DNA of 32,000 bases from positions 180,001 to 212,000 of the forward strand of contig NC_014537.1 in assembly GCF_000148385.1 (NCBI RefSeq), read 5' to 3'. The translations under genes were made by a program, and so were the position numbers. Within the stretch, counting starts at the first letter, position 1; every line of letters starts with the position of its first letter. This DNA is from Vulcanisaeta distributa DSM 14429. GTDB taxonomy: Archaea > Thermoproteota > Thermoprotei > Thermoproteales > Thermocladiaceae. Of the stretch, positions 1 to 8,481 are shown in pieces. The notes below the pieces were generated by a model. That model did no database searches and was not told the DNA's origin. It was given only the letters and a program-made list of their open reading frames with translations.

Positions 1-57
1 TACACAATTAAGAGCTCCGATATAAAGACGCCTAGAGATAATACCAGCTCTACTTCA

Positions 58-1965
58 ATGTATTGTATAAGCACTAAAAATGGCTGTAGATATAGTAACT
101 ATTTCGTTAAGATTTTTGTAGACGGTGATCATAACAATTGGAATCCTGTAATACTTGGATACGAGATTAAAAACACGAGAATGCTCACGCTAGACATTAA
201 GGATTTAATAAGAAAAATAGCCTCATCAATAGTCAATATCGGTGAAGTAGAGCAAGGACAGGACTTAAAGCTTGATTATGAATATAAAACCCTCAGCACA
301 AATACTGCAGTAGTTAATCTACTAAGGCATTACCTATCTCATGACTTGGTAATAACGTATTACTTAACAAGGCTTGGCTTCACAAAGATCGATAAATACG
401 TTAATCTTTCAATACTAATAAATGATTTATTCCTCGGTAATAAACTAACCGTGAAGTTGGAAAAGGACGATGTTAAGGATCTTGCTAGTGATATTATTAA
501 TGATTTCATTAAATCATTTGATAAGGAAATAAGGCAGTCCTGGATATCATTATTACGATATGTATTATCCACGGTCAAAGGTGAGAGGTTAGAAACATAC
601 CGTATATTTCGTGAATGTAAGAATAATAAAAATACTCAAAGATACTGTATTCCTCACGAGGAAGCGGAGAATATTTGGAATAACATAGAAAAGCGAATAG
701 AAGGTATCTTAAAGAACTATAGTGAAATACCGAGTTACTTTGGGGTTAGGACTACTTATTGGTACGTTGGCGCTATTATTGATATCATAAAGCATACATT
801 AAGTCATCATTTAATAAGAACTATTAGCACAAGATATAGTGTTAACCCAAGTAAACTTATTGAGTATTATTACGAAATGAGAGGAGACGCTAAGGTTTCC
901 ATCATGGAAAGGGACTCTGGGGGTATTGGTGTATTAAATGTGGCCTTTGAGTCATGGGAAAAATCTGATAAGGAATTGAGGGAGAGACAAGTCGCTATTG
1001 AGGACCTCATACTATCCTTAGGTAAGTGCCTTGTCGGTACTCCTGAAGACTTACTGCACTTCGCGTTGCTGAATGATGATATTCGTGAAAGGTTATGTAG
1101 CGGTAAAGATAATGATGTAAGAGAGGGTATAAGGGAGATTATTAGGAGATTGAACATAATAGTTACCCCAGATGAGTTTGAGGAGACTATTAAGTTATGG
1201 AAATCAATATACGAGGAGGCTGATAGACTTACACGAATATTACGCAATGGGAATAATTACTTAGGTAATGAACCATGTAAATTATTAAGGGCTGTTCATG
1301 AGTTAAGACATGAACTGGAGAAGAAAATGAGGAGGTTTCCGGACATGGACGAATTGATGGCTTATATGCTCGAGAATATTGATGAATACTCCATACTTAA
1401 TGATTTGCTAACTAAGATGCTAGAGAGGGGGCTTAGGACCTCTGGCAGGTTTAGGGAATTTCTTCATGAGTTGTATGGAACGAATGATTATGTTAAGAGG
1501 TTCATAGGGGGTGTTAATTTTATCCTGAGAAGCAGAATACAGGACATCGATCATTTAAAGGAACTGGTGAGAAACAGTAATGATATCGTGTCAAAGTACG
1601 GCACTAAGGCGCTTGAGAAAATAACTGAATGTGTAGGTAAGCGAAGGGATGGTGATGATACGTGTAAAGCAGTTATACATGCATTGAAGCTTTTGGGTAG
1701 GGCACTCCGTGCGGTGTTAATGAGGATCTCGCTACTTAGTTGTAATGGTGCATGCGGTATGTGCTATGTGAATACTAAGTCATGCAGTAGGTTTGGCGCA
1801 CCCTTCATTCAGGCCAGGACACTTGATAGGAGGGTCCTTAAGGTACTTGCCTCCGAACTCGTTAGGCACATGAGCGATATCGTTAGGGATTACTACGGCG
1901 TTAATAAGGATGTTGATGTTATTGTGGAGCTTGGCGGTGAGCCCCGTACATTGAGGTGTGAATAA
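58..1965 (+). CDS. DUF1998 / MrfA-type zinc-ribbon domain protein (DISARM DrmB-like); may begin left of the window
   Basis: 635-codon ORF. 'HTLSHHL' (aa 246-252), then 'ERDSGGIG' (aa 284-291), then a C-terminal 4-Cys cluster C562-x3-C566-x2-C569-x6-C576 (nt 1741-1785) fit my recollection of the DUF1998 pattern. TAATG stop/start overlap with the next gene. ATATAAA at 20-26 lies about 35 nt upstream of the ATG. The frame has no stop back to nt 1, so an upstream start outside the window is possible. Confidence 0.55.
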   Translation: MYCISTKNGCRYSNYFVKIFVDGDHNNWNPVILGYEIKNTRMLTLDIKDLIRKIASSIVNIGEVEQGQDLKLDYEYKTLSTNTAVVNLLRHYLSHDLVITYYLTRLGFTKIDKYVNLSILINDLFLGNKLTVKLEKDDVKDLASDIINDFIKSFDKEIRQSWISLLRYVLSTVKGERLETYRIFRECKNNKNTQRYCIPHEEAENIWNNIEKRIEGILKNYSEIPSYFGVRTTYWYVGAIIDIIKHTLSHHLIRTISTRYSVNPSKLIEYYYEMRGDAKVSIMERDSGGIGVLNVAFESWEKSDKELRERQVAIEDLILSLGKCLVGTPEDLLHFALLNDDIRERLCSGKDNDVREGIREIIRRLNIIVTPDEFEETIKLWKSIYEEADRLTRILRNGNNYLGNEPCKLLRAVHELRHELEKKMRRFPDMDELMAYMLENIDEYSILNDLLTKMLERGLRTSGRFREFLHELYGTNDYVKRFIGGVNFILRSRIQDIDHLKELVRNSNDIVSKYGTKALEKITECVGKRRDGDDTCKAVIHALKLLGRALRAVLMRISLLSCNGACGMCYVNTKSCSRFGAPFIQARTLDRRVLKVLASELVRHMSDIVRDYYGVNKDVDVIVELGGEPRTLRCE

Positions 1966-2732
1966 TGCTATGGATATGTAAGGACTCTAGTAGAAGCCTT
2001 TCATCAATGTCCATCGAGGAGTTAATGAGGCGGTTTCTTCACGAATCATTTGGGAGTAAGTACATTTACATTATTTCTCCCTGGATCACGCCGTTTACGT
2101 TAAGTTCACGCTTTATTCATTATCCTTATGTATCATCTAATAACGTTATTGATGTACTTAAAGCACTGAGTAATTCGGGCGTTGGTGTTAAGGTCTTAAT
2201 GAGGTGTATCGATGATTCCATGGATATTCAACTCATAAGGGTATTGACTAACTTAGTTCGGGAGAGGCAGATTATACTCAACAACGAGGTTAAGTCATTC
2301 TTTAGAGATAGAATTGATGACTTCCTTAATCGTGCTAATGCAATGATAGACTTAGCTAGGGACCTAAAGGATGCGGTTAGATTTGACTTAGGCGCTGATG
2401 ATAAGCTTCTCACATGGTATAGACTTCATACTAAGCTTTACATTAATGACCACTCTGTTATTATGGGTTCAGCCAACTTTACGAGAGGGGGCATTCTCGA
2501 TGATGGTAATTGGGAGTGTGTGAGTCACTTCACTAAGGAGGAGAATACGGAGATCTACAACTACGCATTGAGAGTTGCCCAACATTACTTCAGTATTAGT
2601 AAAGGTTTTAGTGATTGTGAACGTAGGGTTGTGAGAATTGTCAATGAGTTCGGCGGCGTGGTTAACGAGCCAATTTACAGTATTGAGGACCTAATTGAGT
2701 ACCTGGAGCGGGTTAGGGATAGCCTATATTGA
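1965..2732 (+). CDS. PLD-superfamily (HKD) nuclease, DrmC/Nuc-like
   Basis: 255-codon ORF with a single HKD motif H155-T-K-LYIN-D-HSVIM-GSAN (nt 2427-2477), i.e. HxKxxxxD...GSxN. The ATG overlaps the upstream stop by 1 nt, suggesting translational coupling. Confidence 0.75.
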   Translation: MLWICKDSSRSLSSMSIEELMRRFLHESFGSKYIYIISPWITPFTLSSRFIHYPYVSSNNVIDVLKALSNSGVGVKVLMRCIDDSMDIQLIRVLTNLVRERQIILNNEVKSFFRDRIDDFLNRANAMIDLARDLKDAVRFDLGADDKLLTWYRLHTKLYINDHSVIMGSANFTRGGILDDGNWECVSHFTKEENTEIYNYALRVAQHYFSISKGFSDCERRVVRIVNEFGGVVNEPIYSIEDLIEYLERVRDSLY

Positions 2733-3464
2733 TCTTCGTCTTTGTTCTATCAGGCCGTACCTCAGGGCGTGCCTGTTTATCCAGACCGCTGTCATTGTTA
2801 GGGGTGTCAGCATTACTTTCCCCAGGGCTTGGTAGAGCGCCGTCAGTACTAATTGGTTGTTTGGTATTGTTCCGTAGAATGCCAGTGGCACGAATACGAG
2901 GGAGTCAATGAGCATGCTCACGGGGTCTGAGTAGCCAACCCTCCTAAGCACGCCACCCCTTAACCTACTCACTAGGTAAACGTCGTAGGTTTGCTATGTC
3001 GTGAATGCCACCACTGAGGCTATTACAACCCTAATATTCACTGTCATGACCTCAGCAAATGCACCCTGCATTTTCCAGATTGGGGCTGGTGGGAATTCAA
3101 TTACGAGGTAATTAAGCAATGCTATTAGGAGTTGTGTTATTATGGCTATCCTGACCACGGCATAGCCATAGCCCCTGCCGTACCTGAGGGTTACGTAGTC
3201 GAGTATAGCCACTGAGGCTGAGTATGTGATTAACCCCATTGGGAACATTATTGGTCCAATGGCCCCAATCTTACTCGCCAGGTATTGACTAGTGGTTAGT
3301 AATAGCATGTATAGCATGAAGGATATTGGGAGTAGGTAATCATGCCTACCCAGCCTATACAATGCCCAGAGTATTGATGATGTGACGAAGTAAGTCACAA
3401 CAGAGCTCAGGTAGAACAGGCCCAACGCCGTTAATACCGCGCCCATGGTGATCACACCAACCAC
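2724..3464 (-). pseudogene. yhhQ: YhhQ/DUF165-family queuosine-precursor (preQ0/preQ1) transporter interrupted by one in-frame TAG
   Basis: Track ORFs 2994-3464 (156 aa) and 2724-2972 (82 aa) are in the same frame (3464-2972=492). They are separated only by TAG at 2994-2996 plus 7 sense codons. The joined reading '...TTSQYLASKIG...ASVVAFTT*QTYDVYLVSRLRGG..RRVGYSDPVSMLIDSLVFVPLAFYG' is collinear with the YhhQ pattern as I recall it (A-S-x-x-A-Y-x-x-G-Q-x-x-D-V...R-L-R...S-x-x-x-D-x-x-x-F-x-x-x-A-F). The hydrophobic profile is polytopic. Confidence 0.7.
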
Positions 3465-5299: not shown

Positions 5300-5468
5300 T
5301 ACCTACACCTAGTTATTACCGGCGCAATAAATTAAGCCAGTAATTGAGGGCTCATGTATTGACAGGAGTATCATGCGAGTATTCCCTTAAATTGTCGTGT
5401 TTCATTGTGTTCCACTCAATTACATAGTATTTAATCAATTTACCTGGTTAAAAGATATTGCGATAAGA

Positions 5469-5476
5469 TTTATTAA
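5469..5476 (+). promoter_or_regulatory. TATA-like box (TTTATTAA) for the 5508-8034 operon
   Basis: AT-rich octamer centred about 35 nt upstream of ATG 5508. Similar TATA-like element to ATG spacings are seen at 20-26/58 (about 35 nt) and 8043-8049/8080 (about 34 nt), consistent with short or no leaders. It sits in a 208-bp divergent intergenic region. Confidence 0.35.
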
Positions 5477-5507
5477 GTACAGCTTTGGCCAGGTCTAGTG
5501 GGTCTTC

Positions 5508-6164
5508 ATGAGGCCCTTCACGCTGAGGGGTATTTACGAATTCCTAAACCTGCTTAGGTCCGGTGGTTCCATAGGCGGTGATAGGAGGTTGAGGGAATTC
5601 CTCAGGGCATCCCTCGACCTGGGCTTCGTGAGTGAGGTGAATGGTACATACGTAATCACCGAGAGGGGGTCACGCTTCATGAGTGCGATGGAGGTCGGCG
5701 ATGCCACCACGATCCACGCACTGCTTATGGATAGCCTTGAGAGTTATAGGAGGGTTTACGAATTAGTGAGCAGGGGCGTTACTAAGCCGAGTGAATTGAT
5801 TAGGTTGACAGGTTATAATGCCGTGGTCATTGATATAGTGATGAGGCTCATAAGGGAGGTTGAGGCATTGAGCCCGGGCTCGCCACTTAGTAAGGACTTA
5901 TACGCCAGGTTTGAGGAGGTATTACTGAGTAAGTATAGGGAGTTGAGTAGGAGGAGATGGAGCAGATACGTACCAATCACGGAGTTAGTTAGGGAGGTTA
6001 GGAATGAACTCAATATACCCAATAGGGTCGTTAATGCATTCCTTGAGGAGTTCATCAGAAGGATGGGTAGTAAGGTCGTACTCACCGGAGCACCTGGTAA
6101 GGGTGGTAGGGGGTCAATGGAGATCAATGGTAGGAGGTTCACGTACATAATGATCGGTGATTAG
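5508..6164 (+). CDS. Winged-helix (wHTH)-like protein of unknown function
   Basis: 218-codon ORF. 'LGFVSEVNGTYVITERGSRF' looks like a recognition-helix-plus-wing segment, and a second helical repeat follows. The stop lies 2 nt before the next ATG. Confidence 0.45.
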   Translation: MRPFTLRGIYEFLNLLRSGGSIGGDRRLREFLRASLDLGFVSEVNGTYVITERGSRFMSAMEVGDATTIHALLMDSLESYRRVYELVSRGVTKPSELIRLTGYNAVVIDIVMRLIREVEALSPGSPLSKDLYARFEEVLLSKYRELSRRRWSRYVPITELVREVRNELNIPNRVVNAFLEEFIRRMGSKVVLTGAPGKGGRGSMEINGRRFTYIMIGD

Positions 6165-6166
6165 TC

Positions 6167-7117
6167 ATGAGGACCCTACTACCGATACCGTCAATTGAGG
6201 ATGCCGAGCACATATTTGACCCTCACGGCATTACCGAAGAACTCACGAAATACGTAAACCTAGTGGCCAGCGGCCCCTCGGGTGCAGGCGTGATAATTGG
6301 CAACTACGGCTTTGGGAAGACCCACGTAATGCTCCACTTAATGAGCATTGTCAGGAAGAGGTTCACTAATTCAGTAATTATTTATGTAAACACGCCGGGA
6401 CAAAGCATACTCAATGTCTATAGGGCGCTAATGGTGGGCGTGCTCGATGGTGGGCTCCTCGACAGGGCTGTGAATGGGTTGGGCACGCCCATTAGGGACT
6501 TGGTGCTTTTGTTGAGGGAGGGTGGTGATGAGGCTAGGTACGCGAGGCAGTGGTTGCTCGGTGACCCAGCACCGCAGGGGTTTAGGGCTAAGTATGGGCT
6601 TCCATCAACTAGGGTTAATGATGAACTGGCGGTTAAGTTCATGGTGGAGGTGATAAATGCCCTCACCGGCGTTGGTTACGGCCCCGTACTCATAATGCTC
6701 GATGAGTTTGAGGACGTGATAACCATTGGGCCCACCAGGAAGCTCCAGTACCTGAGTCAATTGAGGGTTTTCATCGATAACCTACCTAGTAAGACCTTAT
6801 TCATGGTGTCATCAACACCCGCCGGTTGGGATGAGATTGTCAATACTTACCCAGCCCTCGCCAGGAGGCTATCATCATTCATAATTTACCTAAGGCCCTT
6901 CAACATTGACGAGACCAGGCAATTCATAAATGAATTCACGAGGTGGAGGGGAATTAAGATACCGTTAAGTGATGAGTTGGTTAGGACGATATACGAATTC
7001 ACCGAGGGTAACCCAGGGGAGGTGGTTAAGGCCGTTAACTTAATACTCATGGAATTTGGCGGTGTGGGGTCTCTGGACATTGCGAGGGTTAAGGAGTTGT
7101 TATCGAGGCATGTCTAG
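6167..7117 (+). CDS. P-loop NTPase (AAA/ORC-Cdc6-like or DUF2791-like)
   Basis: 316 codons. Walker A 'GNYGFGKT' (aa 45-52, nt 6299-6322), Walker B 'LIMLDEFED' (aa 175-183), and a C-terminal 'FTEGNPGEVVKAV' lid-like helix. Only 2-nt gaps separate it from both neighbours. Confidence 0.75.
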   Translation: MRTLLPIPSIEDAEHIFDPHGITEELTKYVNLVASGPSGAGVIIGNYGFGKTHVMLHLMSIVRKRFTNSVIIYVNTPGQSILNVYRALMVGVLDGGLLDRAVNGLGTPIRDLVLLLREGGDEARYARQWLLGDPAPQGFRAKYGLPSTRVNDELAVKFMVEVINALTGVGYGPVLIMLDEFEDVITIGPTRKLQYLSQLRVFIDNLPSKTLFMVSSTPAGWDEIVNTYPALARRLSSFIIYLRPFNIDETRQFINEFTRWRGIKIPLSDELVRTIYEFTEGNPGEVVKAVNLILMEFGGVGSLDIARVKELLSRHV

Positions 7118-7119
7118 GC

Positions 7120-8034
7120 ATGCCGAGGCTATACATAACCTGGTACGCAGAGCCTGAGGACCCACACTACTGGAGGTTCTTTAGGGTCGGTGGTATCACG
7201 GTCTCACTAAAGTCCTTACTTAAAATGCCTAGGTGGAAATTCACGAGGGTTTTAAGCCAGGGGTTCAGGAGGTTCTTTAATTACGATGGGCCGCTACTCG
7301 TGGACTCCATGCTCACTGAGGTCCATGCACCACGAAGTAACATGCATGGTGATATACCCCAATCACACGTATTATACCTGCAGTACCTACTTGGCTCCGA
7401 CATACTGATTCAGAGGGATTACCCACTGATCCACGTTGACGACCCAGGACTAAGGACTAAACTCTTCAATAGGAACTTGGCAATGGCTGAGGCAGCGCTT
7501 AGGTTTGGTGACTTGGTTGGTAAGGACGTGATGCTCGTGGTTCACGGCTGGAACTTAAACACATACATCAAATGCGCCGAGTACTATAGGGACTTAGGCG
7601 TGAAGTACGTCGGTATTGGATCCCTGGTGCCCCATAGGAGCAACACAAAGTTCTTAATCAATGTGGTTAAGGGTGTTCGCGAAGTCCTCGGTAGTCACGT
7701 CCACATGCACCTCTTCGGCATTAGTACGATAGAGTTAATAACGCAGTTGGGTAACTACGTCGATAGCGTTGACGTGAGTACACCCGCCATTGCCGGTGCT
7801 AAGAAGGAGTTAATTGTTTGGGATGGCAGTAGGTTAATTAGGGTTAAAACAACCACCGTGACCGGGATAAAGATAATGAGCGAGTTAATCGAGAGGTCAA
7901 GTGATGAGTTGGAGAGAAAACTCTTACTCGGCATACTCAATGCCAGGAGTTTGAGGGATAAGAACCTTCATACGATGATTTACAATGCGTACATAATTAC
8001 GAAGTACTGGAATTCAGTCATTGATAAACAATAG
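7120..8034 (+). CDS. Second TGT-fold (DpdA-like) paralog, short, lacking the CxCxxC zinc site
   Basis: 304 codons. 'GSDILIQRDYP' (D100), 'YVGIGSLVPHRSNTKF', 'HMHLFGIS' and 'YVDSVDVSTPAIAG' (D218) parallel the motifs of the 615-aa protein. No Cys triad occurs at the equivalent C-terminal position. Confidence 0.6.
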   Translation: MPRLYITWYAEPEDPHYWRFFRVGGITVSLKSLLKMPRWKFTRVLSQGFRRFFNYDGPLLVDSMLTEVHAPRSNMHGDIPQSHVLYLQYLLGSDILIQRDYPLIHVDDPGLRTKLFNRNLAMAEAALRFGDLVGKDVMLVVHGWNLNTYIKCAEYYRDLGVKYVGIGSLVPHRSNTKFLINVVKGVREVLGSHVHMHLFGISTIELITQLGNYVDSVDVSTPAIAGAKKELIVWDGSRLIRVKTTTVTGIKIMSELIERSSDELERKLLLGILNARSLRDKNLHTMIYNAYIITKYWNSVIDKQ

Positions 8035-8079: not shown

Positions 8080-8481
8080 ATGGGGGGAATTGAGGATAAG
8101 GTAGAGAAGTGCCTGCAAGGTCTCTGCGGTGAGTTCATTATCAGGAGGGTTAATTGCAAGGACCTGGGCGACATTGACCATGGGGTCTACATAGTGATTT
8201 CTGGAAGTGATTACGTAATTGGCTACTCAAGGGATTTGAAACGTAGGTTGAGGATGTACTGCCTAGGTCAACTTGACTTAAGGGGTGTGATCAGGCTATT
8301 AATGGGCAGGCTGGACAACCTGCCGCCGGGCATGTTGGGCAAGGGCGACGTGATTGGTCGGCGTAGCAACCTCTCGAAGTTAATCAATGATATGATGAGT
8401 AATGCCCAGGTATTGACGGTTAAGTGCGCTTCCATGGTTGATAAGGAGCTTTACATAAAGCTTAGGGACTGCCTCAAGTGA
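8080..8481 (+). CDS. Small GIY-YIG-like nuclease-domain candidate
   Basis: 133 codons. 'GVYIVISGSDYVIGYSRDLKRRLRMY' resembles the UvrC-type GIY...YIG...R core ('GVY...VIYVGKAKDLKKRLSSY' as I recall it). ATTATAA at 8043-8049 suggests its own promoter. Confidence 0.4.
   Translation: MGGIEDKVEKCLQGLCGEFIIRRVNCKDLGDIDHGVYIVISGSDYVIGYSRDLKRRLRMYCLGQLDLRGVIRLLMGRLDNLPPGMLGKGDVIGRRSNLSKLINDMMSNAQVLTVKCASMVDKELYIKLRDCLK

Follow-up and report, generated by a model that had tools for sequence, protein, structure and literature searches.

A conserved winged-helix, AAA+ ATPase and short transglycosylase gene trio as a candidate base-exchange unit in Dpd-like islands of Thermoproteota

The DNA analysed here, which we call the window, is a 32,000-nucleotide (nt) stretch of Vulcanisaeta distributa DSM 14429 (contig NC_014537.1, positions 180,001 to 212,000). 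It carries three closely spaced genes, which we refer to as the trio, for a tandem winged helix-turn-helix (wHTH)-like protein, a small AAA+ ATPase and a short protein with the tRNA-guanine transglycosylase (TGT) fold. The trio lies beside a gene in which the DNA transglycosylase DpdA is fused to a DpdC-type domain, within an island that resembles the bacterial Dpd restriction-modification (R-M) systems. We found that the trio is a rare but conserved unit of such islands, that its short TGT retains the active-site positions of DpdA, and that DpdB, the ATPase on which bacterial DpdA depends, is missing. From its gene content, the island most likely writes 7-deazaguanine marks into the cell’s own DNA. 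We put at roughly 55% the probability that the trio is an ATP-dependent base-exchange unit in the modification half of this Thermoproteota Dpd-like island, the ATPase and the wHTH protein replacing DpdB.

An earlier reading of the window, made from its letters and open reading frames (ORFs) alone (the sequence-only reading), had described the trio as a co-expressed unit belonging to a Dpd-like island. All three ORFs and both 2-nt stop-to-start gaps were where it had placed them, with TAG(6162-6164)-tc-ATG(6167) at the first junction and TAG(7115-7117)-gc-ATG(7120) at the second by direct reading. An AT-rich TTTATTAA box is found at 5469-5476, about 36 nt ahead of the trio’s first ATG, and we infer from its letters that it may be an archaeal TATA box. 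For comparison we assembled 70 loci from genome and metagenome scans and annotated them with profiles built from our own alignments. Among 45 distinct trio sequences, drawn from genomes as well as metagenomes, the gene order was the same, and the junctions ranged from −8 to +19 nt, with modes of −4 and −1, in 44 of them. This retention of order and tight junctions across homologous loci supports co-expression. The sole exception was a metagenomic locus (L040 3971-5580) where two ORFs stand in place of each of the wHTH and ATPase genes and the short TGT and DpdA-DpdC genes are intact; the trio has either decayed there or been misassembled.

Homologues of the trio proteins are rare, amounting to 18 clusters for the short TGT and to 23 and 17 for the other two proteins among 5.8 billion proteins; scanning 1.84 billion representatives with the short TGT gave 21 clusters at E ≤ 1e-30. 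Trio loci were found in Vulcanisaeta, Caldivirga, Thermoproteus, Pyrodictiaceae and Desulfurococcaceae, and in hot-spring metagenomes. The full trio was present in the same order in 38 of 44 distinct loci with a short TGT, and in the remaining six a contig end interrupts the locus within 800 nt. It was always inside a Dpd-like island, which bears out the placement proposed earlier, and a check for its co-occurrence in other archaea showed that it recurs as a conserved unit in Thermoproteota islands. Look-ups that started from distant ATPase homologues gave the same picture: in four of four, a wHTH gene was upstream and a short TGT gene downstream, and in none did the ATPase and wHTH genes occur without a TGT gene. 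Nor did the short TGT turn out to be a conserved tRNA-modification subunit, as it is both rare and bound to the island.

The short TGT matches Pfam TGT (PF01702) at 33.9 bits (cutoff 26.3), and in a profile search the solved structure nearest to it is DpdA 7UI4 (E = 9e-9). Its AlphaFold2 (AF2) model, with a pLDDT (predicted local distance difference test) score of 89, is a TGT barrel with a helical tail only, without the tRNA-binding PUA domain; Foldseek gave template-modelling (TM) scores of 0.77 to the archaeal arcTGT 1IQ8 and 0.74 to the Z. mobilis TGT. Three aspartates, D62 (VDSM), D100 (IQRDYP) and D218 (SVDVST), are invariant in 18 homologues, which have either Q or H at position 142 (H in V. 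distributa, Q in most). The sequence-only reading had singled out the contexts of D100 and D218 and overlooked D62. We mapped these residues by aligning the short TGT family with the island’s canonical DpdA family (hhalign probability 97.6%, E = 2.8e-12) and chaining the result to that DpdA’s alignment with 7UI4. D62 corresponds to DpdA Asp95, D100 to Asp130, Q/H142 to His181 and D218 to Asp256. In DpdA, Asp95 is the general acid/base, Asp130 takes part in base recognition and Asp256 is the nucleophile, while His181 is Gln in TGTs, and changing Asp95 or Asp256 to alanine abolishes activity (PMC10164549). The retention of all four DpdA active-site positions argues that the short TGT is not degenerate, and by sequence and model it looks like an active enzyme. 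The earlier suggestion of a degenerate or regulatory subunit is contradicted both by these catalytic and base-binding positions and by nine islands, described below, in which the short TGT is the sole TGT and precedes a QueF-L gene.

What the short TGT has given up is the zinc site. The β8/α8 insertion (Ins8) that carries zinc in DpdA is replaced by three helices in the AF2 model, and the position of the zinc-binding His is Tyr (YNAY) in Thermoproteota short TGTs. Consistent with the missing Cys triad reported from the letters, the protein has a single Cys (C151) and no conserved one, whereas its 615-aa DpdA-DpdC neighbour keeps C330, C332, C335 and H357, all invariant in that family. Several of the short TGT's nearest relatives, 281-316 aa long (P0068, P0071, P0074, P0075, P0076 and P0078), keep a compact CxCPxC...HNAY motif. 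Because near relatives still carry CxCxxC...H, the zinc loss is best read as a feature derived within the short DpdA-like family; some phage DpdAs likewise lack two of the four zinc ligands (PMC5699537). The short TGT and the 615-aa protein are about 27% identical over 215 aligned columns, come from different subfamilies and occur as conserved neighbours, in keeping with the earlier view that they are not redundant copies. We rejected filing the short TGT as DpdA itself, since the DpdA equivalog NF041059 matched at 47.5 bits over residues 139-229 only, under the cutoff of 200, and the zinc site is gone. A tblastn search of 50,697 phage records with the short TGT returned no match.

The second trio protein matches Pfam BrxC_BrxD (PF10923; 42.2 bits, cutoff 22.2) and ATPase_2 (PF01637; 38 bits, cutoff 33.2). 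Invariant across 21 homologues are the two motifs recognized in the sequence-only reading, GNYGFGKT (Walker A, residues 45-52) and LDEFED (Walker B, residues 178-183), as well as T217/P218/A219, the arginines R233/R234 that follow the sensor-1 region and a GNPGE motif, with Walker A set in the context GxYGxGKTH. By these signatures, we take the 316-aa protein to be a small ORC/Cdc6-clade AAA+ ATPase, related but not identical to BrxD of BREX. BrxD has been described as a standalone ORC/Cdc6 ATPase and possible helicase loader (PMC12839542). Both the trio ATPase and BrxD of type 2 BREX are standalone members of this clade that match Pfam BrxC_BrxD above the gathering score, but the BrxD model, with 423 positions, exceeds the trio ATPase by about 100 aa. 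Against the BrxD equivalog NF033438 it scored 35.6 bits (cutoff 350) and was covered over residues 121-290 only; given this score and the lack of BREX gene context, we rejected filing it as BrxD. Library scans of the island proteins found no PglX, PglZ or BrxHI in any island. Searching the ATPase-family profile against PDB sequences gave only marginal matches, to DnaC/DnaI and 2FNA.

Members of the wHTH family, with identities of 27-59%, lie upstream of the ATPase in every locus. In the AF2 model (pLDDT 85.6) the V. distributa protein forms three helix/β-hairpin modules, and its top Foldseek matches are multi-winged-helix proteins, none significant for the whole chain. Sequence profiles gave sub-threshold signals, with Pfam HTH_45 at 17.1 bits (cutoff 25.5) and a weak match to Sso10a (E = 0.078). 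We accordingly use the wHTH label first given to the protein as a tentative one.

In bacteria, DpdA inserts no preQ0 without the ATPase activity of DpdB (PMC10164549). Scans with PADLOC, Pfam and NCBIfam found no DpdB- or ParB-like protein, which would be marked by a ParB-like fold and a DGQQR motif, in the trio or among any of the island proteins scanned. The 7-deazaguanine context of the islands comprises the DpdA-DpdC fusion, the transporter YhhQ, QueC, a DpdJ-like helicase (3.7e-53) and a DpdK-like PLD nuclease. In a comparison of locus L001 with L016 and L033, DpdA-DpdC, the wHTH protein, the ATPase and the short TGT were all 83-92% identical, whereas the adjacent DpdJ-like helicase was only 49% identical. 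The accessory genes have been swapped, with a ~1000-aa protein in one and a ~870-aa protein and PLD in the others, and the sequences thus point to module shuffling within the island family. At a distant locus, L071 (2665-8891), the trio includes a zinc-bearing short TGT and is found together with a separate DpdA (394 aa) and a standalone DUF6884 protein (159 aa), among quite different neighbours. The identity values, together with the different neighbours at L071, suggest that the trio travels with the modification genes and not with the restriction genes. Since no DpdB was found and the trio ATPase is the only NTPase in the modification block inherited with DpdA, it is the obvious candidate for a DpdB analogue. 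This fits the sequence-only reading, which had proposed that the ATPase could stand in for DpdB with an unrelated fold; any such equivalence would be functional only.

Two other features of L071 were seen. A 407-aa protein has a weak FokI cleavage-domain match (precomputed Pfam), with the wHTH profile matching two separate segments, and a radical-SAM gene and a mad2-like protein are among the neighbours. A short TGT that is more distant still, P0083 (E = 2e-21, 321 aa, with the zinc motif; L073 5597-8966), occurs without the trio and therefore marks the outer limit of the association between short TGT and trio. It is the third gene of an operon with an N6/N4 methyltransferase and a CfrBI-type restriction enzyme, which suggests that TGT-fold enzymes have also been attached to classical R-M systems.

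The trio occurs in two types of island. Type I comprises 27 distinct loci including the window, and the DpdA-DpdC fusion is directly beside the trio in all 27; companion genes are either a DpdJ-like helicase with a ~870-aa protein and PLD, or a DpdJ-like helicase with a ~1000-aa protein. Type II comprises nine distinct loci in which a QueF-like gene (108-116 aa) follows the short TGT within about 20 nt (Table 1). Past this gene come PLD, a protein of ~800 aa homologous to the ~870-aa one, the DpdJ-like helicase and other large genes, and the flank upstream of the trio holds either unrelated variable genes or QueC and YhhQ. The QueF-like protein matches the archaeosine synthase QueF-L (5JYX) at E = 1.9e-24 and QueF at 5e-7. 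We rejected a role as nitrile reductase, which would yield preQ1, as the protein is much nearer to QueF-L, the crenarchaeal archaeosine synthase, an enzyme that acts on preQ0 already inserted in the polymer (PMC10516641). Among trio loci, the distribution of DpdA-DpdC and QueF-L between the two types is 27:0 and 0:9, so the two appear mutually exclusive. Neither hmmsearch nor tblastn with the window’s DpdA found a second TGT in type II loci within the 6.7-19 kb of sequence available for them (14-19 kb in seven of the nine, ~7 kb for L008 and L069). That the short TGT is the only TGT seen in these nine islands, directly before QueF-L, argues that it is itself the insertase. The simplest reading of the type II gene order is that the short TGT would insert preQ0 and QueF-L would convert it to deoxyarchaeosine. 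Just upstream of one type II trio is a fragment of a XerA-type tyrosine recombinase (L063 1889-2428, − strand), which fits a mobile island.

In the mechanism we favour, the short TGT would be a DNA-guanine transglycosylase that swaps guanine for preQ0 by double displacement as in DpdA; D218 would be the nucleophile and D62 the general acid/base, and D100 and Q/H142 would read the base. The AAA+ ATPase and the multi-winged-helix protein would bind DNA and remodel or select it so that the enzyme reaches a base within the duplex, and in type I islands they may perhaps also serve the canonical DpdA. Tailoring would differ between the types: in type I the DUF6884/DpdC domain of the fusion would convert preQ0 to dADG (2'-deoxy-7-amido-7-deazaguanosine), and in type II QueF-L would convert it to deoxyarchaeosine. 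DNA without the mark would then be restricted by the DpdJ-like helicase, the PLD nuclease and the large uncharacterised proteins. Several points weigh against this mechanism. Loss of the zinc subdomain could compromise the folding or activity of the short TGT, and the presence of two apparently active transglycosylases in type I islands is left unexplained by the model. In BREX, BrxC/BrxD-like ATPases belong to sensing or restriction, and canonical Dpd has a BrxC-like DpdH/I. The 27 versus 9 split follows two clades, such that the loci are not independent, and type II contigs extend 6-13 kb past the sequence covered, where a distant dpdA is possible; an exact-match metagenome scan to extend one of them (L003) past its end gave no match. 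A stronger version, which we hold only tentatively, is that the trio is self-sufficient. The ATPase and multi-winged-helix subunit would then place a minimal zinc-free transglycosylase on duplex DNA and, with QueF-L, write deoxyarchaeosine into the chromosome, while the two TGTs of type I islands would serve two marks or two sequence contexts. To our knowledge, deoxyarchaeosine in DNA has so far been found only in phages.

Three other explanations differ in what they make of the short TGT. It could be an obligate partner of the canonical DpdA in a hetero-oligomer like QTRT1/QTRT2, contributing binding or a second active site, with the ATPase and the wHTH protein loading the complex on DNA. Its gene adjoins DpdA-DpdC in 27 of 27 type I loci and lies beside DpdA in L071 and L075, the four genes have changed together (83-92% identity, compared with 49% for the helicase), and tRNA TGTs work as dimers. 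We nevertheless find an obligate partnership unlikely. QTRT2, the non-catalytic subunit, has lost its catalytic residues, whereas the short TGT retains all of them; in the sequence available for nine type II islands the trio stands without a DpdA; in bacteria DpdA acts together with DpdB, with no second TGT involved; and the zinc subdomain, which forms part of the TGT dimer interface, is the very part that the short TGT is missing. The trio could instead be a reader, in which the TGT fold checks for modification by flipping out guanine or deazaguanine and the ATPase and wHTH protein form a BREX-like sensor that licenses the helicase and PLD. This would account for two TGT-fold proteins in type I islands and would agree with the scaffolding, sensing or helicase-loading roles assigned to BrxC/BrxD-type ORC/Cdc6 ATPases in BREX and with the BrxC-like DpdH/I on the restriction side of canonical Dpd. 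A pure reader, though, would not need the nucleophile and the acid/base Asp to be invariant, the trio follows dpdA in inheritance whereas the restriction genes are exchanged, and type II islands with QueC, YhhQ and QueF-L would be left without a visible insertase, all of which makes a sensing role improbable. We regard as very improbable that the short TGT is a tRNA-modifying paralogue or archaeosine-pathway subunit that merely lies beside a defence island. Its TGT fold, with arcTGT as best structural match, and the fact that QueF-L and YhhQ also serve tRNA archaeosine synthesis would be expected of such a protein; yet at 304 aa it is without PUA or C-terminal tRNA-binding domains, resembles DpdA more than arcTGT in sequence, belongs to a very rare and patchy family (the 18 and 21 clusters above) and is always embedded with helicase and nuclease genes.

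Compared with bacterial Dpd, as in Salmonella Montevideo (DpdA/B/C for modification and DpdD-K for restriction), the island shares DpdA, DUF6884, a DpdJ-like YprA-family helicase, a DpdK-like PLD and YhhQ/QueC. The logic of a 7-deazaguanine on self DNA and restriction of unmarked DNA would also be shared. It differs in that DpdB is missing, DpdA and DpdC are fused and the trio is added; most of its restriction proteins have no match to the DpdD-I models, and in one variant QueF-L takes the place of DpdA-DpdC. The DpdA1-4 proteins of phages and viruses are likewise short (250-330 aa) TGT-fold DNA transglycosylases, some of them without zinc ligands. Their Foldseek TM scores to the short TGT are 0.5-0.64, lower than those of the cellular TGTs (0.74-0.77), Pfam gave no match of the short TGT to DUF6610 (DpdA4), and the short TGT, unlike these proteins, is cellular and encoded with a dedicated ATPase and wHTH partner. 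For BRC (BREX-related capture), which combines a TGT with a STAND NTPase, a non-ParB P-loop NTPase has been proposed as substitute for DpdB in deazaguanine insertion (PMC12839542), and so the idea has precedent in a different system. The HerA/FtsK, PglZ, DUF6079, DUF4007 and GNAT proteins of BRC were not detected in the islands, which have the small BrxD-like AAA+ ATPase and keep Dpd-type genes. BRIGADE of haloarchaea, by its main text (bioRxiv 10.1101/2025.09.15.676423), is also an archaeal Dpd-like island that combines deazaguanine genes with a helicase of the YprA family and a PLD nuclease, but is described there only in halophilic archaea and with two YprA helicases, DpdG and DpdHI/BrxC. 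That main text does not mention the trio, nor do ‘TGT’ and ‘DpdA’ occur in it. As far as the text accessible for these systems describes them, the trio is absent from the canonical bacterial Dpd gene set, the phage DpdA1-4 scheme, BRIGADE and BRC, and it was not described in the full-text literature searched, the coverage of which is incomplete, so that this is not proof of novelty.

How a TIM-barrel transglycosylase reaches a base in duplex DNA is the question posed by the DpdB mechanism in bacteria, and the archaeal trio offers an independent system for asking what ATP does. The archaeal variant appears to solve duplex access through an AAA+ ATPase of the initiator type, unrelated to DpdB, together with a winged-helix partner. 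Our interpretation predicts 7-deazaguanines in the chromosomes of hyperthermophilic Thermoproteota, of the dADG type where islands resemble that of the window and 2'-deoxyarchaeosine in the QueF-L variant. The short TGT itself is predicted to be a compact, thermostable, zinc-free base-exchange enzyme, which could serve site-directed DNA labelling. With these islands, the restriction side of Dpd-like systems also gains four or five uncharacterised proteins.

Table 1. Positions of the trio and neighbouring features in the window, and of QueF-L genes in type II loci
Feature	Position	Strand	Basis
C-terminal 654 aa of conserved ~870-aa protein	1-1965	+	homology to island proteins; frame open to window start
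PLD-family nuclease, DpdK-like, 255 aa, restriction side	1965-2732	+	Pfam PLDc_2; DpdK models weak
YhhQ/Vut_1 preQ0 (queuosine-precursor) transporter gene, split	2724-3464	−	Pfam Vut_1, TIGR00697
Canonical DpdA fused to DpdC-type DUF6884 domain, 615 aa	3452-5299	−	NCBIfam DpdA 275.8 bits (cutoff 200); Pfam DUF6884
Divergent intergenic region between dpdA-dpdC and trio, 208 bp	5300-5507	.	sequence reading
Tandem winged-helix-like protein gene, 218 aa, trio gene 1	5508-6164	+	ORF confirmed
AAA+ ATPase gene, 316 aa, BrxD-like (ORC/Cdc6 type), trio gene 2	6167-7117	+	Pfam BrxC_BrxD, ATPase_2
Short TGT gene (zinc-less TGT-fold, DpdA-like, 304 aa), trio gene 3	7120-8034	+	Pfam TGT
133-aa ORF, possible fourth operon gene	8080-8481	+	19 ORF matches, E ~1e-23 to 1e-25
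QueF-L genes directly after short TGT (other loci)	L003 3750-4088; L008 5397-5747; L062-L070

The genes around the trio in the window (Table 1) fit a type I island. The 615-aa protein also matches the PADLOC models of DpdA and DpdC, and in the alignment of its DpdA part with 7UI4 (E = 9e-51) the catalytic Asp residues are matched, as is the zinc motif. DUF6884 is a domain of DpdC (PMC11888242) and is related to the YaaA/DUF328 fold (PMC11701544). The YhhQ gene is found as two ORFs in different frames (2994-3464 and 2724-2972), both of which match our custom Vut1 profile; intact YhhQ proteins of 197-250 aa are encoded in the related islands L005 and L008. The split is either a frameshift or a sequencing error, and, if real, import of the precursor and with it the island’s preQ0 supply may be impaired in this strain. 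The PLD nuclease gene is conserved across islands. Homologues of the ~870-aa protein, 760-910 aa long, lie between the DpdJ-like helicase and PLD in other loci and had no match in the Pfam, NCBIfam or PADLOC libraries. We rejected truncation of this gene in V. distributa, as its reading frame runs past the start of the window. A C-terminal Cys cluster in this family, SCNGACGMCYVNTKSC (e.g. L009 5577-8165), looks by eye like the zinc cluster of DUF1998 in YprA-family helicases, and the DpdJ-like helicase and the ~870-aa protein may together be a split YprA-type helicase; the BRIGADE preprint describes such split helicases for some systems (bioRxiv 10.1101/2025.09.15.676423).

Downstream of the trio, the 133-aa ORF starts 45 nt past the short TGT stop codon, and all 19 of its matches are likewise directly downstream of a short TGT. 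It occurs only in Vulcanisaeta/Caldivirga-type islands and is absent from Thermoproteus-type and type II islands. Its alignment shows an invariant GVY...GYS...RL pattern and five invariant Cys; by eye this recalls a GIY-YIG nuclease, an assignment that neither Pfam nor a PDB profile search backed. From about 9.9 kb on, the window holds housekeeping genes, including ThiC, a LysX/ArgX cluster and carbamoyl-phosphate synthase.

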